Positions 5,682 through 54,105 of a DNA stretch of 64,000 nt are shown piece by piece; the stretch's first letter is position 1, and every line of letters starts with the position of its first letter. The position numbers and the translations under genes were made by a program. The notes under the pieces are model-generated. The model was not told the origin of the DNA. It did no database searches and saw nothing but the letters and a program-made list of their open reading frames with translations. This DNA comes from Candidatus Altimarinota bacterium. GTDB lineage: Bacteria > Patescibacteriota > Gracilibacteria > BD1-5 > UBA2023. The stretch covers positions 1,399 to 65,398 of the forward strand of contig JAYVIJ010000043.1 in the NCBI GenBank assembly GCA_043770315.1. The letters run 5' to 3'.

Positions 5682-6235
5682 TACGATGTCCCTGGTGTGG
5701 AGATGATCCTCTCTACGTCAGATATCACGATGAAGAGTGGGGAATCCCAGTACACGAGGATGCGACTCTTTTCGAGTTCCTTACCCTCGAGTGAGCTCAG
5801 GCAGGACTCTCGTGGATCACAGTACTTCGTAAACGCGAAAATTATCGAAAACACTTTCATGACTGGAATATCGAAAAAATCGCAAATATGAGCGATGCAG
5901 AGCTCGAAAAAATCCTCCTTGATCCATGAGTCATACGAAATCGACTGAAGGTCTATTCTGTGAGGAAAAATGCACAAGTTGCTCGAGAAATTCAAAAAGA
6001 ATTCGGAAGTCTCGATGCGTATTTCTGGAATTCAGGACAAGAGTTCCCACAGATCCATCATCCAAAAACTATGAATGATCTCACTTCAGAATCAGATACT
6101 TCGAAAACTCTCTCCAAAGATCTCAAAAAACGAGGGATGACATTCGTCGGCTCTACGATCATCTATGCTTTCATGCAGGCAGTAGGTATGTTCGATGATC
6201 ATATCAAGAGTTGTTTTCGAAAGGAAAAAAGCTAA
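5666..6235 (+). CDS. tag: DNA-3-methyladenine glycosylase I
   Basis: N-terminus MTESIIRCPWCGDDPLYVRYHDEEWGIPVHED is the Tag zinc-snap/HhH signature. 189 aa. Overlaps the upstream methyltransferase by 16 nt. Confidence 0.85.
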
Positions 6236-6237
6236 TA

Positions 6238-6978
6238 TTATCGCTTCCAAAATGCGAGGATTCGCTCAAATCGGATATACTCAGTATAGGACATATCAAA
6301 TTTTTTGAGCTTCGTCGCGAGTGGTACTCAGAGATATCTCCAGTGCCATGGCTCGATCTCATAAGCATCGATATACTCTCCATTTTGATAACTCTGATGC
6401 CATCAGTATTCATAGGCATGAGCCTGGAACCAGGCGATATAGCGGCGGTACTTCGCATTTTTATAATATTCTTCCTCGGTCGTCGCATCGAATATATCGA
6501 TCGCGAGACCGAGTTGATGTTCACTATATCCAGGGGGAGCACAGAGAGTCGCATTACATTTTCCGAGATCCCACATTCGCTGTTGGTACTCAGCGCTCCT
6601 ATATCCACTAATCACGACGAGAGGTTCACCGAATTCTTTATAAAATGCCTTAGCAATAAGTCAGAGGGCATCATGGGCCTCCTTTCGAAGTTTACTTTTT
6701 CTTCCAGCTTCTTCTATGTAAGTGAGATCTTCGATCCCGAGAAGATCAGGAGGGATATAGCTCTTATCCGAGAGTCATATATATCGACTCGTGAACACAT
6801 CGATATCTGTATCTTCACCCTGAGAGAATAGTGATGGAAATATCTCGAGAGTATTTCTGATTTCGGTTCCACTGAGTGTCGCCCTACTTCCGATATCACC
6901 AGAACTTGCCTCTGCAAAAAAAGTATACAGAAGCGTGCTGAGTATGATGCTAAATATCCGAAAAAAAAGAGAAAACAT
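6238..6978 (-). CDS. Secreted D-alanyl-D-alanine carboxypeptidase (peptidase M15, VanY-like)
   Basis: Signal peptide MFSLFFRIFSIILSTLLYTFFAEA. Motifs ISGYRS, APPGYSEHQLGLAIDI and YEY-G-WHQSY...EPWHWRYL-G-VP. 246 aa, ends TAA 6238-6240. Same strand, 113 nt downstream of 7092..10892. Confidence 0.8.
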
Positions 6979-7091
6979 GAAGGAAAAATCAGAATCGTAG
7001 TGTAGGGGGAACGCCTTAAAAATCAAATAAAAGCAAAAAAATATTGCCTCCAACGGAGACAATATTTTTAAGCTTCCTGAGAGAACTTTAT

Positions 7092-10000
7092 TTAAGGCTG
7101 ACATCTCAATGTTGCAATTCACCTTCTACCTGGTGCACAGAGTCCACCGCACCAATCTTGAGCACCAGCCAACATAGAATCTCCCGCTGGAGAACAGCTC
7201 GTACCCACATAATCCTCATAACCAGTAGAATTATTTCAAAATGAGACTGTTCCATTTAGTCTACATGAACAGCTTTCTGTTGACCAATAATTTGCTACTG
7301 GTGCTACATCACAATTCGCTCCACTCCATCCACCACTACAAGTATATCCACACTGAAGTCATCCAGCAGTCCATGCTTGTCCGACACTTGTTGGAGCATT
7401 CGCTGTCACAGTACAATGTCATGCAGCGATACATGCAGGACTTGCAGCACAGCTATTTGGAGGTGCTATCCAACATGCATCAGCAGCAGCTTTTTCTATA
7501 GCAGTTCCTGAACAGAGAATCGTATAGTTGGCTCATGCCCAAGGAGTATGGGGCTCACAAATAGTCGTATCTATGAATGGATCACAATCGAGCACAAATT
7601 GGTTATAATCATCGATACTGGTATCCAGTTTCTGGTTATGTACGATCACTCCATTGGCAAGATAGTTATGATTTGGCTTGAAGAGATCATCAGTCTCACC
7701 AGTATCATGGATGCCTGATACATGGAGATTATATACAGGGACTACTTTTTTCTCTACGGTGATATGCTTTATTGGTACAATAGTATTGGTAGTTCCATCT
7801 TGGAATGAGAGAGATTCTCCGGCGATCCATCTCTTATAGATGTCTTTCGCAGCTACATATCGATCATCTTTCGGAAGATAGATTCGATGGATATGATTGG
7901 ATGTAAGAGTCTGATCTCCATACTCGAATGTATAGAGCGTCTGGATTCTCTCCTCATGATGGATAGCTTCAGTGACAGGACGATCGACATAGGTTTTGGA
8001 TATTTCATCATAGGTCTTCACGAGTTCTCCTACTTGGATATCTTCGATCGACTTCGTCTTCCCTGAATCAAGGGTGACTTGTGTTCCTGCGACGAAGCAT
8101 CCATAATCCCAAGTGATAGTTGGTGGTACTACAGCAGCACAGGTGAACTCTCCTCGAGTTGGTGATGGATCTATATCAGTACAAGTTGCTCAGCCACGAC
8201 CACCACAGCTTGCATTGAATTTTCCTGGTTGAGTCGTAGAAATTGCATAACTTGGAGATGTACTTCAAACAGAGAGAGTATCAGTTTCAGTCACCCAAAC
8301 TATAGTATGCACAACTTCACAGTGAGGGAGTACTGCTGCACTACAGCTCAGGGCTCCACAATTCCAATTATAGGTATTATCAAATCCATTTATATCCACA
8401 TCTGTCTGAGCTCCTCAAGTACAGGCAGCTGCCCCTACAGGATATTCTATAGACCCTGTCGTCTGAGCAGTACCACAAGCATCAACAGTAAGTGGTGTAC
8501 ATGAACCTGAACCCACGATAGTTTCATATGCTATATTTCCAAGTACAGGATCTCCATCATAACATCGCATTTGCACCGATCCTGTAAATCCAGGATTAGT
8601 ATTATTGATAGTGACCCAAGGACCTATACCATTATCTAAAATAGGTGATAGTACTGGCATTGTTGATCCACATCATGGTCACCAGTTCTCAGTAATACAT
8701 ATTCCACCTCCGCCTGGACTTCTGCTAATCACATTACTCCATCCACTATCTCCATTTGTATTTCTAGCCTTTACTCTGAAGTCATAGCTTGTACCATTTG
8801 TGAGTCCTGTGACATTTGCATTCGTGGTAATGCTCACTCCGTCAGCGAATACGAGCCAGATAGCAGAGAGAGTCGGCTTGTATTCTATGATATAGTCTGT
8901 CACTACCTCTGCAGGAGCCATCCATGAGAGAGAGACAGAAGCATTTCCTGCTACCCCACTGAGAACAGTAGGAGCAGACGGTCCAGTAGGAGCACAATCT
9001 GGCATTGCAGCCATTTCCGCAGGAGTTTTGTAATATACGAGTTTTCCATTACAACTATTATATATAGCTGATCCTTGTGATGGTTGGTTAGATTGCCACC
9101 ATACAAGACCTCCAGGAGCAGGGCCATTTGTATCGACGAGGCTAAGTTCAGCATTTCCATAAGGGAATCCGACACACTGATCATCTGTCCAGCCACTCGG
9201 AGCATCTTTACATGCCCCAACTGGATTTATAGGTGTAGCGCTAATAATATTACTCGGTCCACTGTCCCCATTTCCATTCCTTGCTTTTACTTGGAAGTCA
9301 TAGCTCGTACCATTCGTCAGTCCTATGACATTCGCTGTTGTACCTGTACCGACACCGTCATTGAAGGTAAGCCAAATAGCTCATGCAGTCGTCTTGTATT
9401 CTACGATATAGTCAGCTATTATACCAGACGGAGCAGTCCACGAGAGTGCGACAGAAGCATTTCATGCGACTCCAGTGAGACCAGTAGGAGGTGAGGGAGG
9501 GAGTGCAGGACATACTACCTGAGCATCGACACTACATCCGCCAAAGACTGCGAACTCTTCTGTATCGAGTGTGAAGCGTCAAGTAACAGGAAGAGAATTG
9601 AGTATACTATCTCTATAGAATCAGCCAAGTGTAGCTTTTGCACCTGCAAGTTGATCACAAGTTGCATCCCATGATACATTCCCATCAATCTCTATTTGTG
9701 TTTTTTGGGCGGGAGTGATATATCCACTTGCTGTCCAGGCAGTAAGCGCAGATTTAAAATTATTCCAACAAGCAACATTCCAACCTCAAGCCTGCTCATG
9801 TGCAAAACAACTAAATGTTCCACAATTTCAACCTACAGGAGCTATCTCACAGTTCACACCACTATATCCAGGATTACAGGTAAATCCACAATTTGGAGAG
9901 TTTCGTGACCAGTCTTGATTGGCGCTTGTCGGAGTTCATAAATTGGTCGTACAGCCGATTCCGTCACAGGCAGGAAGTGTAGATGAGCAATGTGGTATAG

Positions 10001-10892
10001 CAGTACATGAACCTCCATTAAATATCCATTCTACAGCAGTAGTCCCGACGCTCACATCACTATCGACACACTTCCAAGTTACAGATCCTGAGTATCCTCC
10101 TACAGTATTCATAAGGGTGATGGTAGGCCCTGTAGCCACTTGGTTATCACTGATAGAGAATCCAGCAGGGATGAGTGCGCTACAATTTCCGCCTTGCCCA
10201 GATCATGACCATGTTTCTGAGTAACTCATACAACTTGAAGCACCAAGTGGAGCACAGGTTGGACCGCTAAAGCCAGCATTACATGTGTATTTACAATTTG
10301 GGCCTACTTGAGTCCAAGCTTGCCCTATACTTGTCGGAGTTCCAGTTGTGAGGGTGCATCCTGTATATCATGTACATGCTGGTGAAGCAGCACAGGAGTT
10401 TCCAACAGGAGGAGTACTACAATCAATCCCAGTAAATCCGCCAGTACAAGTGTACTTACAATTTGGACCGATCTGAGTCCAAGGCATATTGGCTATAGCA
10501 GGAGTGCCATCCACAAAACTTGCATTCGCATATGCTGGACGAGCAGCACAAGTAAACGCTGGGGGGAGAGGTGGTACAATAGGTGATCCACAAATTACGG
10601 AGCCATCAGCATTTACTGATAATATATACCCAGCACCACAGTTTCATATAAGTCTTTGGTAATAATTCGCAGGCTGATTATTCAATCGTGTCGAGTTTAC
10701 TACTTGACCGCTTTCGAGTCCAGTGAGTGGGGATACTCCAAGCATCCTCTCAAGATACATTGTGAATTCTCAGAGAGTAGCCGTAGGAACTGCTGCTATA
10801 AGAGTAAGGTAGCTCACAGAGAAAAATGCTATGAGAAGTGAGCCTCACAAGATGAGAATTGAGAAGAATTTTCTCGTAAATGAAGGACGCAT
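7092..10892 (-). CDS. 1266-aa membrane-anchored cysteine-rich surface protein: EGF-like repeats, 2x FN3, internal Hint/BIL domain, Cys-rich C-terminal region
   Basis: One frame is open from ATG 10890-10892 to TAA 7092-7094 (all triplets checked for TAA/TAG). N-terminal TM anchor. Repeats of the type GQAWTQIGPNCKYTCTGGFTGIDC. Two FN3 units (...SLSWMAPAEVVTDYIIEYKP...YDFRVKARN). Hint domain from CFVAGTQVTL to NGVIVHN. Confidence 0.8.
7635..8099 (-). other. Hint (bacterial intein-like, BIL) domain inside the 7092..10892 CDS
   Basis: N-terminal block Cys-Phe-Val-Ala-Gly-Thr (Cys codon 8097-8099). C-terminal block VYNLHV...NHNYLANGVIVHN (Asn codon 7635-7637), followed by Gln. About 155 aa with no endonuclease insert. 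Confidence 0.75.
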
Positions 10893-10944
10893 GGAGTGAG
10901 AATTAGAGATATAAGAAGGATAGTATCTATAAATAGGCTATATT

Positions 10945-12204
10945 TTACGGACAAGGGATTGGTGTGGTCGGTCCAGAGTAGCAAAATGGTCAAGCAATAC
11001 AACTATCATCTGCATATCAAGACTTTGAACATTTCCAGTGATGATTTTCTCCATTTACACTATACCTATCTCAAGTAGAAAAGTTACTTCATGCCTTGAG
11101 GGCTCCTCCATTTATACATGTATTCGTTATTCCAGTACACATTGCAAGGGTCGGGAGAGATTTATTTGCACTACAAGTTGGAGAAGCCCCTCATCATGAT
11201 CATACACATTGCCATATCCAAGGACCATTTGGAAAGCCGCTTACCTCAAGGGGAGAGCCGGTAGTACATACACTTGCACTTACTGAAGCCCAAGTATATG
11301 GACCAGGGAAACTTCCACCATTATAGACAGGGTTACATGCTCCATTTACTACGACACAAGCTCCAAGATTGCATGCTTGAGTTGTAGGTTGAGGAGTATG
11401 ACAGTTGTCATAACTACATGATTGGGTACGGCTTTGGGTTCATGGCCCACATGAGGTATTACATCCTGTCCATGCTGTATAGGTATATGGACCAGTATTG
11501 ATACAACTTTGATAGGGATTTGTTCCACTCAGGACAGTATTCGTACAGGTTCGATTTTGCATGAGGGATACACATGTAGTCGGAGTATTCGCTGAAGAGG
11601 CAGAGTATGCTACGCGAAAATCTCCATTGGGAATTACACCCCAAGGATTGACATTACAGTCACAGCTAATTCCTGGGTTACAGGTTCGTACATCAGCGGG
11701 TTTTACCAGTGCTGGTACTGCTGCGATACATTTCGCATCGGGGAATATATTCCCGAGATTATCCGTACAGGTGACTGTGCCAGTCTGACTTCCAGATGCT
11801 GGTGTGGTTCCACAGAAGCCATTCGTCGGTACACATGTGCCCCATGTTGTTGGAGCATTCCAACGATAGATGGTGTTACATACAGTCGTTCCATCAGCAT
11901 TTATCTTCACGATAGGATTATCTACCCCGCAAGTACTATTTACCTTTCTCTGGTATTGCACAGGATCTACTCATCAGAGCTTATCTGTATTTTTGACCTT
12001 TCCATCTGTAGTAGCGATATTCGTATCTTCGAGAAGATTTTGGAAGTACTGTGTGAATAATGTTCATTTGGGTGAAGTCCCCCCAATCCCATTGGCAGGA
12101 TATGCTGCAGATGTCATCCATGATGAGGATATCTGAAGGATCATACCGATGCAGAGACCGATGATGCCTACACGTACAAATGAAAAGATAGAAGAGTGTT
12201 TCAT
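10945..12204 (-). CDS. 419-aa membrane-anchored cysteine-rich protein with thrombospondin type-1-like repeats
   Basis: ATG 12202-12204 to TAA 10945-10947, read through TGA. N-terminal TM, then NTDKL-G-G-VDPVQYQRKVNSTCGVDNPIVKINADGTTVC. YTAWTGCNTSCGPGTQSRTQSC matches the W..C..SCG.G.Q.R...C pattern of TSP1 repeats. Confidence 0.7.
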
Positions 12205-12234
12205 AAAGAAGAAGAAAAAGATCAAAACGAACTA

Positions 12235-12507
12235 CTAGTTTGCACAAGAGAGACCTCATGCGTTTACACCATTTGCCCATTGCCCGACACAAGTATTTGG
12301 TATGAGTCTCTGGTATTGGGCTGCATCAAAACCATCAAGTTTCCTCGAATCTCGGACAGTACCATTGCTCTGATATATTCGAGGGAAGAGATCATAGTAG
12401 ATGCCTCCGCCAATTGCTGAAGTAAAAGGTGCAACAATATGCATCCCGAGAGCAATGCTACATCCTAGTACTATACCGAGGAGAGAATGATAAATATAAG
12501 TTTTCAT
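12235..12507 (-). CDS. 90-aa membrane-anchored mini-protein (TM helix plus conserved Cys module only)
   Basis: MKTYIYHSLLGIVLGCSIALG...SRKLDGFDAAQYQRLIPNTCVGQWANGVNA-G-GLSCAN, ending at TAG 12235-12237. This is the same module that opens 10945..12204, 7092..10892, 32292..34016 and 34546..34845. Confidence 0.6.
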
Positions 12508-12533
12508 AAGTGAAAAAAGAAAGAGGTGAAAAT

Positions 12534-15158
12534 TTAGCGTATTGGAGCAAGACCAGGAGGTGGATCAGTGACGATACGACTATCATATTCAATGATAAAT
12601 GATGCTTTTTTATCATTTGATGAGAGATTTGCTGCGGCTCTTGCTAAAGTCGCTGGTGATATACCACGATAGTATCTAAAATGTTCAAAGTCATATCGAA
12701 GCGGTATTTTGCTATTGCTATTACAATTATCGATTGATTGAGGACAGACAGGAGCTCCTGGTATGGATGCTCATCCGATCGTATTGAGGGAGATAATACT
12801 TCCAAATACATACAGTTGCTTATCGAGGACTCAGGTTGCATTCGAGAGGTCAGTATAGTAAGGCGTTCCACTTCCTGGATCACCAGAGAGAAGAGATCCT
12901 TCAGTGATAAGAGAAGTATCGAGGCGAAAGACGGTATTTTTGACATAGATATTTCCACCATTTCCATTTGCATCTTTGAGTGCGATGAGGGCACGAGGGA
13001 GGACTTGCGCATTCGGAAGGATATAGTCTGCACCGATGGTGATATCACCATATACGACTATAGATGCTTTATTATCGAGGAGAGCAATTTGGGCAGCATT
13101 GATATTTTGACTTCCAGAATATACAATCAAGTTGGTTCATGTATATGTAGAGGCATTGTACGTAGCATTTCTTGTGAGAATACTGATATTTTTGCGTATT
13201 TCATTGAGTATATTTGCGCGAGTGACTGAAGCATTTTTCGGTTGATACATTTCAGTGATGCTTTGGTATATCTTATCACCGCTTGATTGCCCGAGTATTT
13301 TCACTCATCCAGCAAATACGCTATCACTTTGAACAAGAGTACCTTGAGAAAGACCCTGATACGTGATATCTTGTCAACCTACTCACCCGACTCTATAGGT
13401 GATAACAGAGTCATATGCGTAAGATTGCTCTATGTCTACCATATTGACTCGACGAGGCGTTACAGTGAATGAGTGGATATCATTTCCACTCGTCGGTATC
13501 GATATCATCGATGCTCGACCTCACCCAGCGCTGATCCCACGATCACAATATGGACTTCCGTATGATCATCCACTCGGAAGATATGCAAAACAGTCCTGAA
13601 TCGGATTTATACCCGTAGTGTCCTGGAACGTAGAGGCGACATTCGCGACTCATCCCACAGTAGTGACTATAGAAAGTCCATGGATGATATGGGCATTGCT
13701 TGATGCTCCGCTTGGGTCAGTCTTTTGTATAGCACCTGTGATCGTCGTCGGACGTCCTATCTGCCCAGAGAGTCCGATGATACCAATGACTCTATAGAGA
13801 GGAAGGAAGGTGATATTCGTCGTTTGGAACTTCCCAGTGATATCAGCTGAGTGAGCATTTGGTCATGATACATCGACACTCACCGTTCATATACTTATAT
13901 TATTACCAAGAACATTTGGATCTCATGCAGTAGTAGGAGCGTAGCTTGATAAAGAAAAGCTTCGACCAGGAGTATAGTTGTTAGTAAAGGGAAGGGGAGT
14001 AGCATTGGGATTAGTCTCTGTGATTGAGTCATAGAAGCGATATGCTTTATTTGTCTGACCAGCGACATCACCTCTTCCATACGCAAGAGGATTGCCAAAT
14101 AGAGTATTGGTGACCGTAGTACTATTGATTCATACACTATATGTGATATTTCTTCCTATCGCTCCTTCCGCTTTTAGAGTATTCCCATATATATCACGAA
14201 GATTGATTGTGGCATTGAATTTTTGTACGGCATCAGCGAACTTTGAACCGAGAGGGCTTGCAAAATCTCATCCTGCCCAAGTCGTTTTTGGTGTGCTTCC
14301 ATCTGGACAAAGAAGAGCATTTGGGAGATTTGCTGGGATACAAAAAGATGTGAGGAGCGTCCCAGCGGTGACGTTCGCCGCTTGAGATATATTTGCTGCA
14401 TAGACTTGTATCGTTCCTGTGGTAGTCGAACCAAATGGGTCAATGATAGTATAGGTATACTCTGTCGCGAGAGAGAGATCTACATTCGGAAATCCACTTG
14501 ATCATTGATTATAAATATAGGGTCGACATAATGTGATATATCATACAGGGCAGAGTAGCATTGTTATAGTGGCACTTCCGCGTGTAAGTATCCATGCTGG
14601 CACATTTGCCCTGAGTGTTACTGAGTTTGTAGCAAAAGTATAGTCGGAAAAAGGTGCAATATTTGTAAGGGGTGCACCATTGAGAGTTACAGGCATTGCC
14701 CAGAGTTCTGAGTTAAATGGGATTGATCCCACAGTAGTACTCGATGCATTTCAGCTGATGAGTCAAGTGGATTTTGTATAGGTGATACCTTGTCACTCTA
14801 GCTCGATCCAGCCTGCCATACTACTCCAAATATAGCCCCTGAGTGGACATGATATAGCAGCCCCAGTCATACAAGCAACATCGAATTTTGCTTCACTTCC
14901 AGCAACTCCATGGTCAAATTGGGACCATCCTATCGCGTCGGTCCATACATCACCATGAATGATATACCCAGCATCAATACGTACTGGTAAAGGAGAGGGT
15001 CATACCCAAGGGGTTCCCCCCGAAGAGAAGAGAAGATCAGAAGGATTTCCTCCGTAGAGGTAGGTTGTCGCACTTGGAGAATACGCAGCAAATATTTGTA
15101 GAGGAGCTATTATAAATAGACTGAACAAGAATATGATGCGAAAAAGAAAAGATGACAT
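12534..15158 (-). CDS. 874-aa secreted protein with the C-terminal 'NGNGGNIYV' module (paralog of 29154..31484)
   Basis: ATG 15156-15158 to TAA 12534-12536, single frame read codon by codon. Signal peptide MSSFLFRIIFLFSLFIIAPLQIFAAY. C-terminus ...LKDANGNGGNIYVKN...QLYVFGSIISLNTIGG...FIIEYDSRIVTDPPPGLAPIR. Confidence 0.8.
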
Positions 15159-15186
15159 ATCTCGATAATAATAAATTTATATACTT

Positions 15187-16239
15187 TTAGGATTGAAGCT
15201 TAATGCTCGCAACACAAGATTCACGCAAAGAATCATCGACAAGAACATCACATTGGCTTATGTCTTTTGATTCAATAATCTTTTTGATGCGAGTACGATC
15301 AAAACATGATGTCTTAAGTGGACTCTCAGTAAGTTTCTCACAAAGTCTAGGATCTCATTGATTCGTAGCATCGAGAAATATCAAACGTTCTTCTAAAGTT
15401 ATAATTTCTTTTTTACATTGTTCAGCGAGAGAGGTATTTGTGATTTTTTCACAAAGAGAAATATCGCTCTCCTTCTTTGCTCGTGAGTAAAGAGCGGTAT
15501 CTTCACATCGTATTTTTAGAATTTCATCACTCATTTTTTCGCATATTCCAGAATTGGGACTTTCTCCAATTTGAGAAAGTATCTTATAATCATTTTGTAT
15601 GACGATACGGCTTTGACATTCTCATTGGACATCTTTATCGGCGAATTCTTTACAATCTTTTTCTGAAAGTTCTCACTTTGCTGACTGTTTCATCTCGAGA
15701 ACGACAGATTCCGTTCTCTGTTTACATTTTTCTTTCAGACTTATATCTGTTATTTTTTCACAAGTTTCATCATCTTGCTTTGTGCTTCCTGAAAGAGATA
15801 TTTCACTCATAGCAGAAGAGAAATATACATTATTTCTACAGGTATCTCCACTTGTTCCACTGAGGGTCTCACAAATAAGAGGATCTTTTTTTTCCGAAGC
15901 GAGAGAACTCGTAACTTGATTCTCGCAGTTTTGTTTCATTTCATCAATCTCAATTTTCTTGCATACAGTGACATCTTTAGTTCTCGTCGCTTCATTAAAA
16001 AACTCTATTCCCGCAATCGTAGCTTCTTTATTCTTTTCTGCTTCTTCCTCACTTTTTTTCATCGCTTCGATAAATTTCTCATCCTCAGGTGTTATCGTGA
16101 GAACTCTTATATTAGCAGCTTTTGGTGGTACTGACGGTGGAAGTATTTTTTGCTCGTTTGACGGAGAAAAATATATCCATACAGCAATGGCGATACCAAT
16201 GATACCACAAACAAGACTCATCCAAATCGATTTGCTCAT
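15187..16239 (-). CDS. 350-aa membrane-anchored protein built of Cys-pair repeats (family with 18951..19592 and 28117..29091)
   Basis: N-terminal TM (SLVCGIIGIAIAVWIYF), then about nine units of the form D...C-x(7-12)-C, e.g. DISLCEKITNTSLAEQCKKE and DPRLCEKLTESPLKTSCFDR. Ends TAA 15187-15189, 28 nt upstream of 12534..15158. Confidence 0.75.
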
Positions 16240-18837: not shown

Positions 18838-18950
18838 TTTTCGCCAAACTTCAGAGATAATTTTCATAAATGGCAAGCTATTTTTCCCTTGCTTTCTTTG
18901 AAAACAATGGAAACTGATTATACTACAAATATTATTCCTCACATATCATT

Positions 18951-19592
18951 ATGCGCTTATTTCTTCTTGTACTTTCACTGAGCTTTATTCTTATAAGTTG
19001 TAGCACAAAGAGCTCTTCCTCTTCACAAGTAGAAAAATGAACTGTAGATGGTTCTTATGGTGAAGTACTCGAAAACACTTCAACAAAAATAAAAAATACA
19101 GCAGAATTCGAAGAATGTATGAGACCAAGCGTAAATATGTGTGTCAATCAAGTGGGAAACCAACTTGCTCGATCTCAAAAATCTACTGACTTTTGTGATG
19201 AGATGATGCAATGAAGTGCAAGAGATGGTTGTAAATTTGGAGTTATAATGTCCCAAGTTGCGGAATCAAAAGATATAAAACAGTGTGATGGACTCAGTGA
19301 CATGTATAAAAAAGAATGTCGAGTGAGCATCCTTCTTGCTCAAGCAGTAAGCGCAAATGATATAAAAAAATGTGACCTTATCGAGTCTGAGGTTTCTCAA
19401 TCAGGAAGTACTGATACATCAAACAGTAGAGCGGACCAGTGTCGGGCTGATCTTATCATGAGAAAGCAATGAGCAAAGGTTTCTGATTGTGATATACTTA
19501 AGAATGGTGTCTCAAAAGATATGTGTAAGGCAATCGTAGAAAATAGAAATGAATGAGCGAGAGCAGCTACAGAGACGACAATCCAAAATTAA
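18951..19592 (+). CDS. Lipoprotein of the Cys-pair repeat family
   Basis: Lipobox LSFILIS-C. Repeats DIKQCDGLSDMYKKECRVS, DIKKCDLIESEV and VSDCDILKNGVSKDMCKAI resemble 15187..16239 and 28117..29091. 213 aa. Confidence 0.7.
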
Positions 19593-27332: not shown

Positions 27333-28055
27333 ATGGACTTTCTCTCCCAAAAAACGTCTTTTGACACATATATCGGAGTCAAATCAGATCCAAATAATCA
27401 CGAAAAATACCTTTTTCTTCGGGCTCAAAAGTATATCCAAAAAATAACTTGGATTCCTGGTATTCGTATGATAGCTGTGGTGAATTCACTCTCTATGTAT
27501 GCGACACATCCAGACTCAGATATCGACCTTTTTATTATAACTGCGAAAAATCGCATGTGGATAGTGCGAGTCTGTATAACCTTCTTTTTTTGGTATTATG
27601 GCGTTTGGAGAAAAGGGGAGGATATTGCTGAGAATTTTTGCCTTTCTTTTTTTATCGAAGAGGAGGAGAGCAATCTTTCTTCTATAGCTTTCGATGATGA
27701 TATCTATCTTTATTTTTGGATCTACTATATGAAGCCGATATATACAGAGTGAAGTATCTATGAAGATTTTCTATGAGCCAATACTTGGGTCGACGTGCCT
27801 TTCGATATACGACTCGAAAATATGCGATACCTTTTACCTTTACCAATTATACCTTCATCTCATTTCTTTCTCACTCGATGGATCCTGACATGAGTCAATA
27901 AGGTTTTTCAGTGTATCTGAGGATGGAAAGCTCGTTCCCAATTCCAAAAAAAAGGTTCTCCAGAAGGAGTTATCATCACTTCCCGAATGTTAAAATTTCA
28001 TGATAGCGATAAGAGGGAGGAAATACGAGATTCTCTCGATCTTCGGGATGAGTAA
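27333..28055 (+). CDS. Hypothetical protein with a nucleotidyltransferase-like N-terminal motif
   Basis: 240 aa joined through TGA. VNSLSMYATHPDSDIDLFIIT resembles the GS...DxD minimal nucleotidyltransferase fold. The remainder is unrecognised. Confidence 0.55.
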
Positions 28056-28116
28056 AATGATGGTTGCTTTTCTCCTTATTTTTTTTAAGATACTTATATA
28101 TTTGCTTTCGTCTTCT

Positions 28117-29091
28117 ATGAAAAAAATTTTTTTTGGCATACTCATAATCTTTTTGCTTCTCGGATGAATCATATATTTTATTTCTTGACTTTCAGATACT
28201 CCAAAATGACAAGATAAGTGGACTTTTCGTACATCCCAAAAGGAAACCCTAAGCTATGAGGACAAAATAAAACAAGATGAAGAAACAGCAGTGCACGATA
28301 AGGGCATCTATAATAACGCACTAAAAACACAAGATACTATTCTTTGTAAAGATATCATAAATACAGATGAGAAAAAACGATGTTATGATATGATCGGTGC
28401 AAGTGTCGCCCTCAAAGAGAGAAAAAAAGAAATGTGTGATACTCTCAGTAATTCTGGAATCGTGGAACGATGTCGAGATAATGTCTCATTTTCGCTCGCA
28501 GAAAAATCATGAGAAAAAACGATGTGCGCTCTTATTATAGATGAAAATCTGAGAACTCAGTGTGAAGAGATGATCGATACCAAATCTTTCTCTCTTCGAG
28601 TTGCTTCGGGGACGATCGATACAGCTTTTTGTGGGACACTTGCTGGAAGTGTCTGAGATCAATGTCGAGCTCAAGTCACGAGGCGAGACGATAAAAATAG
28701 CTATAATAATGCTCTTTCTCAAAAAACTCTCGAAAGCTGTGATACTATAGAAAACGAGGTGCTTCGGTCTCAATGCCGAGATACAATCATATTTGATATG
28801 GCTATTAAACAAGGAGATACGGACTTGTGTGCGAGTATTTCCAATAAGTCACGATCTGAATATTGCGAAAAATCACTGAATGTACGCAATGATACTATTC
28901 TCTATGGATCGATCGTAAAAGAAGGCGATATTATCGCATGTGACACACTTATATCTCTTGAACTCAAGAACCGATGCCATGATGTAATACTCATAGCTCA
29001 AGTACGATCGAATCAAGATTCAGCCCTCTGTGAAAATCTCTATAATACTGGCATGATAAGTAGTTGCCGAGGATTGATACGATCGAAATAA
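28117..29091 (+). CDS. 324-aa membrane-anchored Cys-pair repeat protein (paralog of 15187..16239)
   Basis: N-terminal TM (FFGILIIFLLL-G-GIIYFIS). Repeats DTILCKDIINTDEKKRCYDM, KEMCDTLSNSGIVERCRDN, DTDLCASISNKSRSEYCEKS and DSALCENLYNTGMISSCRGL. Confidence 0.7.
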
Positions 29092-29153: not shown

Positions 29154-31484
29154 ATGATGTGGTATTTTTCTACGATCATCTCGCTGTTTTCTATTGTATG
29201 GGGATTTTTTTGATGTATTTCATCCTGAGAAGCAGCGACGACATATTCACCAGGGAGTACTATCGCTATGACTGGATCCAATGGCGAAGTATTTTTTGAT
29301 GTTACAGATGATCTTTTCGGATATCCTATACCGAGGCCCAGTTTCGATATGATGCTTGGAACTTTTTCTTGAGCGTTCTATCTTTCTTGAGCAGGTTGGG
29401 TCGATTTCTTGACGGGAAGCTATAGTGTTGCTCTCGATTGCGGCGCTCAGTCTTATGATGCACTTACTCTCCCTTGTACCCTTTCATGAGTCGCATATGG
29501 TGAGATAGTAGGGGATGTCCTATTTGATCGACAAGTCCTATTTGATCCTACGACATGACGACTTTCAGGTACCGCTTCTACCTATATCTGAGTCTATGAT
29601 TTTTCTGGTATCACCCTCCCACTCCTTCCTGCGAGTTTCGTCCTCGGCAATAGAGTCACAGCCGATAACGAGAAAGATCTCTCACTCTCGGGTATGAGCC
29701 TCTATGGAGATACCGTATGGAATATATTTATGGAGACGTCGCCAGGAGGTATGAATATCTCTTATACAGTCGGTCTACCTACCGACCTTTCTCATGCAAC
29801 GACGTACTATGTTGAAATACACGATCCAGATGGAGGAGTGACGACGATCGATGATTTTGAAGTAGTTGCTGATCAGCCATCGAGCGTTCTCTACTCCGCG
29901 ACACCGACTATTCGAGCAGATTTTTGTACGAATAATTTTCCTTCACTCCTTTGTCCAGATGGAACAACTTTGAAAGCTATGACTCTTGATCGGACAGAGA
30001 CCATCACCCCGATGATTGCCAACGGTGTCGATATGTATAACTTTGTTCTGAAGCTTCGAGATCGATATGGAAATGAAGTACGAGAAGGAAGTATAAAAGT
30101 GGATTATACAGATATGATTCGTACGATTCAGGCAGATCCACTCAAATATAATAATTTGGTTATAGATGCTTGTTCATTTGGTACCTGTGCTATCATCTCT
30201 CAGGGTGATCTTCAGAATTTCTTCGATGGTGTACTTACGACAGGAGACGTCATCATAGGTATGAGTGATATCAATTTTGATATAGCGAGTATTGCTCCAT
30301 CGACCCTTACGGATACCATCACTCTCTCAGGAATACTCTATACTGATACTTTTTGAGTAAGTCATGATGTGACCGATCCGACATGGAGAGCGCCACTGGT
30401 GTTTGATCCATGGTATACGACGAGTATACTTCCGATTCCATCGATCGTCGTTTGAAGCGTCGTGGACTTTACGACGAACTATGCACGCACGACTTCAGCT
30501 ATACCACCCAATACTCCTACGGCGATATATGATATAGCAATCGGTTCCAATAATCCTGCAGCATTTACGGGTTTTGTATCAGCTATAGCCCCATCATGCA
30601 CTAAATATTATCTTTCATCGGGACTAGATGAGTGTGATTGGGGAGGTACTCCAGATCCTGTCATGATCTCGACGGAGTCACTCAGTTTCTCTGGTATCTA
30701 CTGATATGGTGGATATGAGCCACCACCAGAGAACATCAACTATAACTCGTATATACGATATAGTGTGCTTCATCCACTGCTTGGTACGAATGTCGTATCA
30801 TACTATCCGAGTGGAAATGGAAGTCTCGGAATATCCAATCCTGGAGCTATCCGTATGAAAATCCTCGGACAACACAATCTCCCTGGACTTTCCTGAATCC
30901 AAGAAAAAAATATTGCTGATATCTGGAACACTCTCCAAAAAAATATCGCACTGATGTCACGCAATCGTACGACATATGCTGATGTTCCTTATAGTGTCAC
31001 AGAGGGTAATATCTCGATATCTGATACTGACTTCACATCGACATCACCAGAGAAGCGGACGATCGTATCTCTCGGGTGAGACATCACGATCACGAGCGAT
31101 ATCATAGAAAAAACTTCACCTATAGCTATCATCGCCCTTTCTGATACAGATGGAAATGGTGGAAATATCATCATCGATCCAAGTGTCACAGATATCCACG
31201 CTACTCTCCTCGCAGAGAGGGTAGTGTCATCTACCGGATCCAATCAACTCTATATCCATGGAAGTGTCATATCTCATAATACCACGAGCGATAGCACCTG
31301 TCCATACTATATCTCTCCATGTGCCAATCCTGAACTGTATAATCTCGAAAATCTCCGCAAAGATTTCATCATCACGCCAGGCAGTCTTGCATCTTCTCTC
31401 TCTGGGAAATACCCCAATATCCCACTTATCATCGAGTATGATGGAAGAGTCATATCTTATCCACCACCGATTCTCGAACAGTAG
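29154..31484 (+). CDS. 776-aa secreted protein with the C-terminal 'DGNGGNIII' module (paralog of 12534..15158)
   Basis: Single frame from ATG 29154 to TAG 31482-31484, read codon by codon. Shares NFPSLLCPDGTTLK, LKLRDRYGNEV, KNIALMSRN, SDTDGNGGNIIIDPSVTDI, QLYIHGSVISHNT, YNLENLRKDF and LIIEYDGRVISYPPPILEQ with its paralogs. Confidence 0.8.
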
Positions 31485-31546: not shown

Positions 31547-32149
31547 TTATGCAGCTGTTTCTTCTGGAGTCTCTGTCTTTTTTATTTCTGGACTAGCTCC
31601 CGTTGTAGCAGATCTACGACGACGAGCCGCCAGACCTACCACACCAAGCCCAAGTGCACCGAGTGCAAAAGTCGAAGGTTCAGGGACAGCACTGATGTGA
31701 GCATTGCCTCGCATCGATATATCGCCGAATCAAGAGTTATCCCAGCTACCTACAGTATAGTTACTCGATGATAAACTGTTAAGTCCATTACTCATATTTA
31801 GGCTTCCAGCTTCGAAACTATAAAGACTCGTAAATATTAAATTTGGAAATTCAACTAACATATCAAATTTTGTATCTGTTCACTCATACATCGCTTCAAA
31901 ACTCACCTGATATGGATTTCCTGCGGTAGGAGCTCAGAGAACACCAGTCCCAGTGAAGAGTGTATTTCCCTGATTATCAGTAAATATATATTCTCCTATT
32001 CCGCCAGTACTTGTTGGTCAACTAATATTTCCTTTGACAGAAATAGAGTCAACTCATACTGGAAGCGTGACTATACCTGCATCTGCCGTTTCTGCTCCTA
32101 CAAGAGCAACAGCAGCAAAAGCTGTAGCTGCTACTCTTCTGAGAGACAT
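31547..32149 (-). CDS. 200-aa secreted protein with a PEP-CTERM-like C-terminal sorting signal
   Basis: GGAGG Shine-Dalgarno 5 nt upstream of the ATG. Signal peptide MSLRRVAATAFAAVALVGAETADA. C-terminus SAVPEPSTFALGALGLGVVGLAARRRRS plus a 20-aa tail. Five in-frame TGA. Confidence 0.7.
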
Positions 32150-32291
32150 ACCTCCACCTTTTCTTAGGGAAATATTACCAGTAGCAGTATCAATACTTCA
32201 ACGATCAAGAGGTTTCATATATAAAAAAGAATTTAGAATATAAATGATCTACAACAAGTATATTTTATATTTTTAATTATATAAGTCAATA

Positions 32292-34016
32292 CTAATTCCA
32301 TATTTTGATAGATTTTATCTTCTTTCAGATTTTAAAAAGTCAGCCTACATTAGTACCAATGACGAACTTATTAACATTCGCAAGAGGTGATATTCTATAT
32401 GTATATATCTTCATAGTAGCATCTCGAGTAAATAATACTCCATCTGCTATTCCTACACCAGGTCAGTAGGGAAGTGTTCTAGGAACTCCACTATGTTTAT
32501 AATAATAGTTTGGTCCTCCTGAGTCATACTTTAAATAGTTTCCATTGTCAAGATCGATGAAATACTGAATTGAGCCAATATTTATAGGTTCAGTGAGTTC
32601 GATTTCTATAGTTTTTCCTGTAAGAGTACCTCAAGAAATAAATGTTTCAATATCACCATGATTATATTGGAATAATTGAAGATAAAGACTTAAATCAATT
32701 CATTCTAGTGACATTAAAAATACCCCATAGTTTTCATTTTGTAGAGATCTTATAGTTCCATTAGATCTACGAATATCAAGAGTTGGAAGTGATGAGGGGC
32801 TTGTGGTCATAGGAAGACTATAGTTTGCTATAGCGAGAAGTCAGTGATCCTGACATCCGTAGCGTTCATTCCAGTAGATTTTTCCTATCTCACAAAGACT
32901 ATTTGCTTCTTGTATACCCGTTGCTGTCAGTATTCCAGCCGAGTTATCGGGTATTGTTGTCGCGATTTCATTATTGAAGATCGTTTTTTTAGCCAGAGTC
33001 ATGGTCATACCTGAGAGTGATGTTTTTCGGTACATATACTCAATATCTTTTTCTGTATTTTTCTTTGCCCACGGGGAGCTTATAAATATAGTGTCTTTCG
33101 GCTTTATTAGAGGAGAAGGGATGGTATTCCCACATCACCCTGGAGGGATCACATAGCTCTTGGTCTTTGCGAGGTTCGAGAGAGGTCTGTATCACCCATC
33201 AGTTTTCCTACAGGCGATGACAGCCCCAGTGTTCGTCGTGGTATCGATGATAGCGACTTCTGTCGGATAGAGTCATGGTGTGCGTGGTATCGTCCAGCCG
33301 GTACCTGACCAGACTATAGATCATATGGTATTTCCTGTCGATACCAGTGAGATGCTCGTTCCACGGACTCAGGCGATGATCTCATGAGTTCCGACACTAT
33401 ATGATCCCGTCTCGGTGAGGATACGTCACCAGAGAGAGCCATTCTCGAGGAGGGCTGAGGCGATACTCGTCCCACCAGAGAGATACCCTATATCGAATGA
33501 CACGACGGTATCTCCATCGAGACGAAGTATCGATAGATCAGAGAACGCGATCGTCATAGTACATCCAGGAGGTGTTTTGAGGATGTCTCATGACTTCAGG
33601 GTATGTCCTGTAGAAGTAGGATTGGTCGAGCTTCCACTTGCATGATAGATCGTAGAAGTACTACAATCTTGACTCTCGATCTTTCAGAAGTCCCCGAGAA
33701 AAGTCGAGGTTGATCCGCATATAGGTTTATTATTCGCATCGATCCCCACCCATTTATCCGTTCAGACACAGTTATTTGCGGTGAGATATCCGCTAGCAGT
33801 GGTACCATCGAGCATGAGCGTATTTTCTATCACTCATGTCCCCGTATAGGTCTCGATATCACTTCCGATAAGTCTTGATATCGCTGATCCGATACTCCCG
33901 CTTCCACTCGGGATTCGTGGAAAGAGTGTTGTATCAGGAAAGAGTGCTGGTACGAGAGCATAAGCGACCCCTATGAAGAGGATGATCGATATGAAGATAG
34001 GGAGGATTTTGCGCAT
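32292..34016 (-). CDS. 574-aa membrane-anchored protein: conserved N-terminal Cys module plus a FecR-like domain
   Basis: Read codon by codon from ATG 34014-34016 to TAG 32292-32294. TM ILPIFISIILFIGVAYALV. Module YLTANNCV-G-TDKWVGIDANNKPICGS. FecR-like TMTIAFSDLSILRLDGDTVVSFD...SYSVGTHEIIA-G-VRGTSISL. Confidence 0.7.
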
Positions 34017-34105: not shown

Positions 34106-34459
34106 TTATCATTTATTCCTTAGGGAAGTGATGAGGCTGTTGAGCATTTTGTGTATTTCTATAAGACTCTCATTGAGATGAGTATAGCTATCTGAGTCTA
34201 TATAGTCAATATTTCTTGCTATCAGAAGTTGTGTCTTTGCTTCCGCAAGACTTCATCTTGCTATTATAAGGAAGCGTATAAATTCAGTAGTGCTTTCTCT
34301 CTCGCTTCATTCGGCAATATTACTAGCAATACTCACTACTGATCTTTGAAATTGATCTTTGAGTCAGAAATCTCGAGAAAAATTAGAATTTTTTGCTATA
34401 GATTGATACATCAATACTGCGATATCGATAGATTTTTTCCATACGTTGAGATTTTCATA
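34106..34459 (-). CDS. Four-helix-bundle protein (23S rRNA intervening-sequence protein family)
   Basis: 117-aa ORF ...SIDIAVLMYQSIAKN...FQRSVVSIASNIAE-G-SERESTTEFIRFLIIAR-G-SLAEAKTQLLIA. The conserved NIAEG and ARGS glycines are TGA. The family N-terminus (YENLNVW) is encoded just upstream in another frame. Confidence 0.75.
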
Positions 34460-34485
34460 GTATGCCATAACAGTAATGTTATATG

Positions 34486-34547
34486 TCTTCTAGCCCTCTA
34501 GTCTTTTATTCTACTAGTCCTCTTGACTTCTAGCCCCTAGTCTTCTT
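34486..34547. repeat. CTAG/TAG-rich direct repeats flanking the four-helix-bundle gene
   Basis: gtcttctagccctctagtctt ... gacttctagcccctagtcttctt. Contains gacttctag, the reverse complement of the ctagaagtc word seen at 40025-40051. Confidence 0.5.
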
Positions 34548-34845
34548 ATCTACACATGACATTTCCACTTGTATCGAATCAGTAGATACATTTTGTAGCA
34601 GGACAAGACTGACTTGGTGCGACTTTCTGAAAATTCGAAGCAGGGAGTCATCCGAGCTTATTCGCATTTGCGACCGTGCCATCTCCCGCATAGGTGAGAA
34701 CTTGGTCTGGCGTGATACCGAGAATCTGTCAGAGTATTTCTGCGAATTTGCCCCCGCTCGCAGCATTCACGATACCAGAAGATATAAGGAGTGTGAGGAT
34801 ACACCCGAGAGTGAACATGATACCTCGAAGAAAATAGGAGAACAT
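34546..34845 (-). CDS. 99-aa membrane-anchored mini-protein (TM helix plus conserved Cys module only)
   Basis: MFSYFLRGIMFTLGCILTLLISSGIV...NANKLG-G-LPASNFQKVAPSQSCPATKCIY-G-FDTSGNVMCR, ending at TAA 34546-34548. The start codon is chosen at the TM helix. The track ORF 34729..35064 extends further upstream. Confidence 0.6.
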
Positions 34846-34950
34846 AGTGGAATTTTTTAAAAAATTTTTACTTTTTTTGTATGAAAAATGAAGCATTTTT
34901 CGGGAGGGATTTTTGCTTTCAAAAGAGAAATCTGATACGATAGCAATAAT

Positions 34951-45857: not shown

Positions 45858-46076
45858 ATGAAAACATATATACTTATCTTGTCATCACTCTTTCTTCTCA
45901 CATCTTGTGGATGATCGAAGTGAGACACAGATACGCCGACCAATACTGACCCTGTAACTCCTACTGTTTCCCAGACAAAATCCTCAGACTGAGTTCCTGC
46001 CATCGATCCAAGCACTATAGAGAGTGCTGCTATCACGACGGATGGTTCGACGGGAGTGACTATTCGTCCTCGATAA
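45858..46076 (+). CDS. 72-aa lipoprotein (hypothetical)
   Basis: MKTYILILSSLFLLTS-C lipobox, with a Thr/Pro/Ser-rich mature part. Three in-frame TGA. Ends TAA. Confidence 0.55.
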
Positions 46077-46104
46077 TTTCTCTTATTCTTTATTCTTCGC
46101 TTCT

Positions 46105-53583: not shown

Positions 53584-54105
53584 ATGCATTTTTCAAAAAA
53601 GGGCTTCACGCTCGTAGAAATGATGGTCGTAATTGCAATTATAGGTGTCCTCGCTGCAGCATTGTTTCCAAGCTTCTCATCCTATCAGCAGAAATCTCGT
53701 GATGTCACAAGGATTACAGCCATCGATATCGTACATAAAGCTCTCGCAACATATTTTCTTGATGAGGATCGATATCCGAATGCTGTAGCTGGATGTGTTC
53801 CTGATGCCGTCGTGATGAAGTATAATGCCGGAAGAGCATCTCGTGATAAAGTTTTAGCGCACGATAATGGATGTGGTGCAAATGGAAATTTTGGATATGG
53901 GACGGGATCCAATATTGCACATCCTAGTGCTGGAGCAGATGAATATGTCGTCATCGCACGATTTGAGTTTCCTGATACAGGAAATTTTTCTGGTGGGTAT
54001 ATCGCTCTCGGTGGCTATACGGGCACATTCTCAGCCTCAGGCTTTGCTAATGCTTATACAAAACGTATAAAGTGATCTGGGAATTGGTATATCACACTCA
54101 AATAG
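53584..54105 (+). CDS. Type IV pilin / pseudopilin-like protein
   Basis: Class III signal MHFSKKG-FTLVEMMVVIAIIGVLAAALFP. With TGA as sense the ORF runs ten codons past 54075, to TAG 54103-54105. Confidence 0.8.

Follow-up and report, generated by a model that had tools for sequence, protein, structure and literature searches.

What are the six genes that lie head to tail on the minus strand between positions 6238 and 16239 of this DNA, and what could they do for the cell that carries them? The window, by which we mean the whole analysed stretch of 64,000 nucleotides, comes from contig JAYVIJ010000043.1 of a bacterium filed as Candidatus Altimarinota and belongs to the Gracilibacteria. These organisms, like their relatives, have never or hardly been grown in culture; they live attached to other cells or prey on them. 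We call the genes g1 to g6 in the 5′ to 3′ order of their own strand. The reading that we favour, with a probability of about 0.55, is that g1 to g5 form a surface display or adhesion cassette specific to the Gracilibacteria, in which a conserved core is combined with exchangeable binding proteins.

Genetic code, gene order and export

The six genes appear only when TGA is read as glycine. Under translation table 11 the region is fragmented, and reading TGA as a sense codon triples the open reading frame (ORF) content, which goes from 57 kb up to 180 kb. In g1 to g6 together, TGA stands in frame 61 times, and the codon at residue 796 of g2 specifies the second glycine of a family motif, NTIGG, which is conserved among the family homologues. 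The nearest loci carry the title Candidatus Gracilibacteria and come from metagenome-assembled genomes (MAGs). Since TGA stands at conserved glycine sites and the nearest genomes are Gracilibacteria MAGs, the assignment of the organism and of its code holds, and the host genome uses code 25 (TGA = Gly), of the Gracilibacteria and Absconditabacteria type. Read in this code, the minus-strand ORFs are g1 (15187-16239, 350 aa), g2 (12534-15158, 874 aa), g3 (12235-12507, 90 aa), g4 (10945-12204, 419 aa), g5 (7092-10892, 1266 aa) and g6, a VanY peptidase ORF (6238-7104, or 6238-6978 with a start at Met43). The gaps from g1 to g5 are 28, 26, 30 and 52 nt. The start chosen for g6 decides whether it overlaps g5 by 13 nt or lies 113 nt away from it; Met43 is the likely start, giving a classical signal peptide and the 113-nt gap. 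A preliminary description of this DNA had proposed six head-to-tail minus-strand genes at these coordinates, separated by 26-113 nt. The arrangement is borne out under code 25, and the range of gaps matches when g6 starts at Met43.

As had been proposed, each of the six products carries a signal peptide or a membrane anchor at its N-terminus: their maximal Kyte-Doolittle value over 15 residues is 2.05-2.66, against 0.2-0.85 in flanking cytoplasmic proteins. Cysteine makes up 4.9% of g1, 3.3% of g3, 6.9% of g4 and 4.8% of g5, where the background is 1.4%. The claim that the cluster is entirely cysteine-rich does not hold for g2 (1.1%) and g6 (1.0%), which are at the background level. When the cysteines of signal peptides and the catalytic cysteine of the Hint domain of g5 are left out, the mature counts are even in every product (16 in g1, 10 in g2, 2 in g3, 28 in g4, 60 in g5 and 2 in g6), as expected for disulfide-bonded exported proteins.

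The class III signal motif of type IV pilins, G(F/M)(T/S)L(I/V)E, occurs in none of the six products, and no C-terminal LPXTG sortase anchor was found in them, the sole match being an internal LPVTG at residue 434 of g5. There was no Pfam match to Omp85/POTRA or Haemagg_act that would indicate two-partner secretion, and the model of g2 is not a barrel. The search for tail fibres found no Peptidase_S74 in the window proteins and no phage genes nearby. A bona fide type IV pilin with KKGFTLVEMMVV (MHFSKKGFTLVEMMVV...), distinct from the N-module proteins described below, is encoded at 53584-54105 on the plus strand, and the genome therefore also has conventional pilins.

A conserved gene pair and a shared N-terminal module

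The product of g1 has an N-terminal transmembrane segment (residues 8-27) followed by eight C-x11-C repeats, with 16 extracytoplasmic cysteines, and it has no match in Pfam, NCBIfam, PHROG or the Protein Data Bank (PDB). A g1 homologue stands directly upstream of a g2 homologue in six loci of other contigs (L001, L023, L031, L032, L035 and L036/37), and when both window copies are counted this adjacency is found at eight independent loci. Thus g1 is the invariant partner of the long g2-family genes. Its sequence is far from invariant: in the congener L001, where CorA is 91% and RF1 95% identical to the window, the g1 homologue (8998-10050) shows 62% identity. The L001 CorA, RF1, g2, g3 and g4 products are all 85-95% identical to their window counterparts, and g1 therefore evolves much faster than its neighbours. 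We also observed g1-like Cys-pair repeats (blastp 5e-4) in a 240-aa predicted lipoprotein encoded next to RF1 at 18870-19592 on the plus strand, with a counterpart in L001 at 5737-6381. The Cys-pair repeat is therefore a small multigene family whose members differ in their membrane anchors.

The product of g2 is a secreted protein with a signal peptide. AlphaFold2 (AF2) models it (pLDDT 78.8) as a beta domain at the N-terminus, which carries GW-type motifs, then about three beta-sandwiches of the Ig-like kind and a conserved C-terminal domain. An exhaustive HMMER search with g2 returned 225 representative homologues at E<=1e-3. Few of these are full-length; many have about 440 aa and share the last 240 residues or so. 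The family is marked by the motifs IRKN..LTRN, IIALKD..G.GGNIYI, QLYI.GS.IS.NTIGG, CP.....C, YD.NYFR and IIEYD.R....PPPG. None of the 46 family members compared with Pfam has a match there, and sequence searches of the PDB with the g2 family and with its C-terminal domain gave nothing significant. NCBIfam matches of g2 to McrB and of g3 to YnaM, both at 13-16 bits against cutoffs of 637 and 35, respectively, are noise. With Foldseek, full-length g2 retrieved only generic Ig/MG-domain arrays, at TM scores of 0.1-0.16. Word-indexed protein searches were far less productive than HMMER, since g2 found two matches (the copy of the same species and one relative at 83%) and a profile of the 46 family members found three. 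The public entry P0001 is g2 with 20 Trp-for-Gly substitutions, owing to translation of TGA with code 4, and these explain its reported identity of 98% to g2. Tryptophan likewise stands at conserved glycines in many of the public entries P0003-P0152, for which code 4 was used and not code 25, and this mistranslation therefore weakens word-based homology searches for the whole lineage.

The part that defines the g2 family is its C-terminal domain (residues 636-874; 12537-13253, minus strand). It is predicted by AF2, when modelled by itself (pTM 0.81), to consist of a helix followed by a beta-solenoid-like fold of short strands, with one conserved cysteine pair (CP.....C) and the end ...IIEYD.R....PPPG. 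Foldseek gave best E values of 1.2 in the PDB and 0.058 in BFVD, with none below 0.05, and the domain was not found in IMG/VR. As modelled, it is novel at the level of the fold, with no Pfam, PDB or viral structural match. The same type of domain ends three further exported proteins of the window, encoded at 326-1378, at 29154-31484 and, with weak similarity, at 46042-51465. The first of these (plus strand, 350 aa) is nearly all C-terminal domain (hidden Markov model, HMM, 5e-45), and its N-terminus may be miscalled. The last (plus strand) is an exported protein of 1807 aa with 75 cysteines and tandem repeats of 66 and 200 aa, whose C-terminus, ending in ...NPPPLL, is weakly related to the g2 domain (HMM 3e-6).

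The products of g3, g4 and g5 have in common a module of about 65 residues that follows the signal peptide, which we call the N-module. Its pattern is GG.F..Y...IL ... G.V.N...L.G.....YQ.R.....C.......V.INADG...C, and pairwise comparison supports it between g3 and g4 (E 5e-6) and between g4 and g5 (E 3e-6). With an HMM built on the module, two further window ORFs came up, at 34546-34845 (99 aa, E 1.6e-7) and 32292-34016 (574 aa, E 2.4e-4), and the five database matches to its profile in the word-indexed search are mini-proteins of 83-99 aa from other Gracilibacteria. The product of g3 is a signal peptide with the N-module alone; it is 91% identical in L001 and has no Pfam match. In g4 the N-module (residues 45-111, nt 11872-12072) precedes cysteine-rich domains, among them a repeat of TSP1-like type (residues 240-283) and one of the form W.W.C.G.GG....C.A. 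The TSP1 pattern WTGCNTSCGPGTQSRTQSC is present, and the Pfam model TSP1_ADAMTS scores 22.5 bits against a cutoff of 23.8, whereas the g4 homologue L010_3926 passes Pfam TSP_1 (7.6e-14, 52.1 bits). Residues 252-393 of g4 resemble repeats in the ORF at 46042-51465 (4e-7), which holds g4-like W.W.C.G.NGG....C.A repeats.

The order of these genes is kept in relatives. Contigs of the same species (L002-L007) read CorA-g1-g2-(g3)-g4-g5-VanY-Tag, and the congener L001 reads RF1-CorA-g1-g2-g3-g4-g5, with a g5 that is without one segment. Two loci with about 40% identity in g2 have no CorA ahead of the cluster: in L031, g1 and g2, which abut or overlap by 13 nt, are followed at gaps of 5-12 nt by three N-module proteins (304, 395 and 1218 aa) and then by RuvC, and in L032 they are followed by two N-module proteins. 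The module is clear in all of these partner proteins. Conservation of gene order, which the preliminary description had wanted checked in related genomes, thus extends to about 40% protein identity. In the more distant long g2 loci L023, L035 and L036/37, g1 lies directly upstream of g2 and housekeeping genes lie downstream. All three elements, g1, long g2 and N-module proteins, occur together at the first window locus and in L001, L031 and L032; they occur in split form at the second window locus and in L034, and the g1-g2 pair occurs by itself in L023, L035 and L036.

The loci of short g2-family genes show a related association. Twelve of 15 have a gene for a related N-terminal module adjacent or within about 3 kb (nine directly downstream of the short g2 gene, two upstream and one about 3 kb downstream). 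These genes encode exported proteins of 169-2016 aa with the N-terminus GG.F..YF.N...C.....I.GF......Y..P.C. Aligned by hhalign with that of the window, this module reached a probability of 88.5% (E 2.7e-6) across the Cys loop, and an HMM built from the short-locus proteins ranks g4 and g3 at the top in the window (9e-5 and 2e-4). These partners carry the tail-fibre chaperone Peptidase_S74 (three cases, L010, L013 and L022), TSP1 repeats or Cys repeats of the g5 type. Some N-module partners of other genomes have fibre repeats of the GNVGIGT type, and the largest partner in L031 has RCC1-like repeats.

The window itself holds a second copy of the pair on its plus strand. The product of g1′ (28000-29091, 363 aa, 16 Cys) matches g1 over its full length (blastp 2e-25), as does that of g2′ (29154-31484, 776 aa) with g2 (blastp 2e-31; C-terminal domain HMM 6e-41). 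This pair is convergent with a minus-strand unit that encodes the 99-aa N-module mini-protein (34546-34845) and the 574-aa N-module protein, which has a FecR domain (2.5e-5; 32292-34016). L033 and L034 show the arrangement again, next to genes for a CHASE2 cyclase, Mfd and RRF, and in L034 a g2′ homologue takes part in the same convergent arrangement. The earlier proposal of a set of exported adhesin-like proteins therefore stands for g1 to g5, which are conserved, do not look like a random assortment and have a paralogous copy in the same window. Between the mini-protein and FecR genes lies a gene for a 120-aa four-helix bundle of the Avd or 23S-IVS-like kind (34106-34468, minus strand), which the syntenic loci L033 and L034 lack. 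The nucleotide cyclase with the CHASE2 domain (34888-37008, plus strand) is divergent from the N-module unit, and its neighbourhood, kept in L033 and L034, suggests a signalling link to that N-module subfamily. A 223-aa protein encoded at 31547-32218 on the minus strand ends in a PEP-CTERM-like signal (VPEPSTFALGALGLGVVGLAARRRR), and its counterpart in L034 has a weak PEP_exosort_dom match. Such a signal is unexpected in a CPR (candidate phyla radiation) bacterium that is presumed to have a single membrane.

The Hint domain of g5 and the variation of this gene between strains

The product of g5 is a mosaic in which the N-module (residues 36-105) is followed by Cys repeats of EGF-like pattern, two FN3 domains, a Hint domain and a cysteine-rich C-terminal domain. 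The EGF-like pattern occurs in four copies, of which one follows the Hint domain, and g5 has the internal DNA repeats D3 and D4. The resemblance lies in the pattern C...C..G(F/Y/W).G..C only: no Pfam EGF model matches g5 at E<=0.1, and the label "EGF-like" given in the preliminary description has no further backing than this spacing of cysteines. Its FN3, Hint and VanY labels are sound, and its TSP1 label for g4 falls just under the gathering score. The two FN3 stretches match Pfam fn3 (2e-27, 95.5 bits against 25) and titin FN3 in the PDB (2e-32), and are 74% identical to each other in DNA. A scan of the six products against NCBIfam and PHROG gave nothing beyond FN3, Hint and VanY. 

The Hint domain (residues 931-1087; 7632-8102, minus strand) is of the PT-HINT or A-type BIL kind. 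It matches PF07591 at 29.6 bits, above the gathering score of 27.7, and the PDB entries 6tmm/6y75 at 4e-9. Its motifs comprise the catalytic Cys1 (Cys931, in CFVAGTQV), which comes in addition to the 60 other cysteines, a T-x-x-H motif (TSNH), a C-terminal His-Asn (VHN) and Gln at +1, the last also found in L001. Judged by these motifs, the domain has the A-type BIL / PT-HINT arrangement with the full set of catalytic residues, all those needed for the autoprocessing that had been suggested. A-type BIL domains have been described in secreted proteins that are hypervariable (Amitai 2003 and Dassa 2004, cited by PMC7765530). The g5 domain resembles them in Cys1, T-x-x-H, His-Asn, the lack of a nucleophile at +1 and its place in a variable secreted protein; it differs in lying inside an adhesin-type repeat array and not ahead of a toxin domain. 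A canonical class 1 intein was ruled out by the +1 Gln, the hypervariable secreted host protein and the absence of a homing endonuclease. The 180 residues or so after the Hint domain consist of the EGF-like-pattern repeat and the cysteine-rich end domain, and match no Pfam, NCBIfam or PHROG family. This end domain also terminates proteins without a Hint domain in L017 and L032.

Comparison with the same-species contig L003 showed how unevenly the locus varies. There are no nucleotide differences in g1, g2 and g6 and one in g4, and CorA, Tag and a methyltransferase are identical as proteins. In contrast, codons 251-460 of g5 (nt 9513-10142) have a synonymous divergence (pS) of 0.375 and a nonsynonymous divergence (pN) of 0.077, codons 812-861 have a pS of 0.31, and residues 722-811 (8460-8729, minus strand) are replaced in L003 by an unrelated segment of about 130 aa. 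Because synonymous divergence is high in an otherwise identical background, the divergent segments must have been imported by recombination. Thus g5 is a hot spot of recombination, as receptor-binding or antigenic surface proteins typically are, and we regard it as a good candidate for the recognition of other cells. A diversity-generating retroelement, for which the Avd-like gene at 34106-34468 was considered, was rejected given the high synonymous divergence and the absence of a template/variable repeat pair.

Possible functions of the cassette

How might such a set of proteins work? We infer a surface location of the products, docking through the N-module, activity of the Hint domain and co-transcription of g1 to g5; binding to host or prey cells would fit the strain mosaicism of g5. 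At the family level the cassette is undescribed, although its general kind, clustered modular surface adhesins, is known. In the favoured reading the conserved core pair is g1, anchored in the membrane with an external part of eight disulfide-clamped repeats, and g2, a secreted stalk built from Ig-like domains, with the lineage-specific beta-solenoid-like domain at its end; g3, g4 and g5 are the variable part. After Sec export, the N-module, with its amphipathic start (GG.F..Y...IL), the stretch ...L.G.....YQ.R... and a disulfide loop (C.......V.I..DG...C), would mount g3 to g5 either on the core or on the envelope. The C-terminal parts, rich in disulfides (TSP1-like, EGF-like, FN3 and other cysteine-rich domains), would face away from the cell to bind ligands on others, and g3, the handle alone, could serve as an adaptor or cap. 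The Hint domain of g5, with Gln at +1, may cleave itself at one or both junctions or perform a nucleophile-independent ligation, by which the last 180 residues or so would be released or rearranged. Changing specificity would be selected in g5, which is rebuilt by recombination between strains. One mechanism, which goes further than the favoured reading and to which we give a low probability, is that the N-module serves as a handle docking swappable binders, in some lineages trimers like phage tail fibres, on a scaffold of Ig-like domains held at the envelope by the g2 C-terminal domain and g1, with recombination setting the range of hosts or prey.

Several observations weigh against a display or adhesion cassette. 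There are no N-module genes beside the g1-g2 pair in L023, L035 and L036, and at the second window locus they form a separate convergent unit beside the CHASE2 cyclase. With the module absent or split off at several g1-g2 loci, the link is frequent and not obligatory. The relation between the modules of the window and of the short loci is weak, with HMM values of 9e-5 to 2e-4 and an hhalign alignment that spans 22 columns only. The N-module could also bind the wall, or be merely a conserved mature N-terminus. In the divergent blocks of g5, a pN/pS of 0.2 indicates imported alleles under purifying selection and not demonstrated positive selection. Lastly, promoter-like sites are not commoner than in shuffled sequence (28 observed against 35.4); as there are fewer sites than in the shuffles, the promoter scan carries no weight.

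Among the other explanations, the one that we take most seriously, while holding it to be unlikely, is that these are envelope-building proteins of the cell's own wall or of an S-layer-like fibrous coat, in which the g2 C-terminal domain would be a wall anchor and nothing would have a role in recognition. It would account for the presence of that domain at the end of at least four different exported window proteins, for the g1-like repeats of the lipoprotein at 18870-19592 and for the position of the cluster amid the housekeeping genes CorA, RF1 and Tag with a wall peptidase adjoining, and a fibrous surface is known from the related Vampirococcus (PMC8080830). However, variation in one gene and a domain swap between otherwise identical strains are not expected of purely structural proteins, and the partner domains in relatives (tail fibre with S74, TSP1 and RCC1-like) are typical ligand-binding modules. 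The wall peptidase is also at the centre of an improbable reading, that all six genes form one operon with the VanY-like enzyme as the lytic part, cutting the peptidoglycan of host or prey. The product of g6 matches PF02557 (8e-27, 94 bits against 25), has an export signal and intact Zn-binding motifs (SEHQLGLAID at residue 194, EPWH at 251), and lies on the same strand and adjacent in all contigs of the same species; for Vampirococcus it is proposed that secreted wall hydrolases attack the wall of the prey (PMC8080830). It shares with VanY/LdcB enzymes (MEROPS M15B) the PF02557 match and the SxHxxGxAxD and ExxH motifs, and differs in falling below every NCBIfam equivalog cutoff, far below in the case of the vanXY and LdcB models. 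Enzymes of this type commonly trim the cell's own peptidoglycan. Moreover, an intrinsic-terminator-like hairpin at 7037-7069 on the minus strand, with a perfect 15-bp stem, a 3-nt loop and a U-run, stands 23 nt past the g5 stop, inside the N-terminal extension of the long g6 ORF. Its dG is -25.1 kcal/mol (z -5.9), and none of 200 shuffles folds as well. VanY adjoins the cluster only within this species (contigs including L002-L004); it is absent in L031, where RuvC follows, and from all 23 g2-family loci. Because of the hairpin and of this distribution, g6 is left out of the cassette and is probably a neighbour. Of the operon ending in an M15 peptidase that the preliminary description drew, g1 to g5 remain as a candidate transcript, since the internal terminator that it named as a refuting sign is seen, as a terminator-like element, for g6 alone, and its idea of a peptidoglycan cutter as part of the apparatus is not upheld.

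The Hint domain invites a quite different reading, in which g5 would count among the polymorphic toxins or the proteins of contact-dependent inhibition, its PT-HINT would release a C-terminal toxin into target cells and the other genes would be accessory. That PF07591 scores above its gathering threshold, that the best PDB relatives of the domain were deposited under an ADP-ribosyltransferase name and that BIL domains occur in hypervariable secreted proteins (PMC7765530) would suit it. We nevertheless consider it highly improbable, as the part after Hint has no family match and consists of an adhesin-type repeat and an end domain that also closes Hint-less proteins in L017 and L032, no small immunity-like gene follows g5 (the next gene is VanY), and strain variation lies upstream of the Hint domain and not at the C-terminal tip. 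Least probable of all, with hardly any chance of being right, is a remnant of the receptor-binding module of a prophage or tailocin, made of tail fibres and assembly proteins. Peptidase_S74 and GNVGIGT-type fibre repeats in N-module partners elsewhere recall such a module, but the PHROG matches of g5 to tail proteins cover its FN3 and Hint domains only and were rejected as phage evidence. The surroundings hold no gene for a capsid, portal, terminase, baseplate or integrase, the flanking housekeeping synteny is stable, the cassette is chromosomal across genera and the g2 C-terminal domain is missing from IMG/VR.

Returning to the display and adhesion cassette, its closest described analogue in concept is the Mosaic Adhesive Trimer (MAT) fibre family of Bdellovibrio. 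PMC12428579 describes the MAT fibre proteins of Bdellovibrio bacteriovorus as having a conserved mount and variable, exchangeable C-terminal binding domains, some like phage tail-spike adhesins, with a presumed role in prey attachment. Both are large exported proteins with a conserved mounting part and exchangeable distal domains, in a bacterium living on other bacteria. The likeness is one of concept, and no kinship in sequence was tested for or found. Here the shared element is a disulfide-looped N-module of 65 residues, the genes are clustered with the partners g1 and g2, and the window proteins are cysteine-rich mosaics and not predicted trimeric fibres, fibre types being found in relatives only. 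Phage receptor-binding proteins also combine a conserved N-terminal attachment with a variable C-terminal part, which recalls the S74 domains in L010, L013 and L022 and the mosaicism of g5. Unlike them, the genes described here are chromosomal, with Sec signal peptides and no virion genes, and g3 to g5 of the window are without S74. By analogy only, a cellulosome also has a multi-beta-sandwich protein with a distinct C-terminal domain, encoded beside secreted proteins that share a short module; here there are no cohesin or dockerin Pfam matches, and the common module is N-terminal with a disulfide. Our full-text literature search found no description of the cassette, in line with the earlier statement that it matches no described system. 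Giant surface proteins and pili are mentioned in the papers on Vampirococcus and on groundwater Gracilibacteria (PMC8080830, PMC11452946), and keyword searches within these two papers returned no mention of the cassette.

To date, as far as these papers go (PMC8080830, PMC11452946), partner recognition in Gracilibacteria and their relatives has been put down only in general terms to type IV pili and to giant surface proteins. The cassette offers testable candidates in the g1 repeats, the g2 C-terminal domain and the N-module, each without a Pfam, NCBIfam or PDB counterpart, together with a conserved genetic architecture and, in g5, the one gene in which two otherwise identical strains differ. 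In public protein sets these genes are mistranslated, with W for G at TGA, which hides the family from word-based searches. If docking is indeed what the N-module does, any Gracilibacteria genome could be read for its whole repertoire of displayed binders by this mark, and sequence alone would then suffice to find the determinants of host range.

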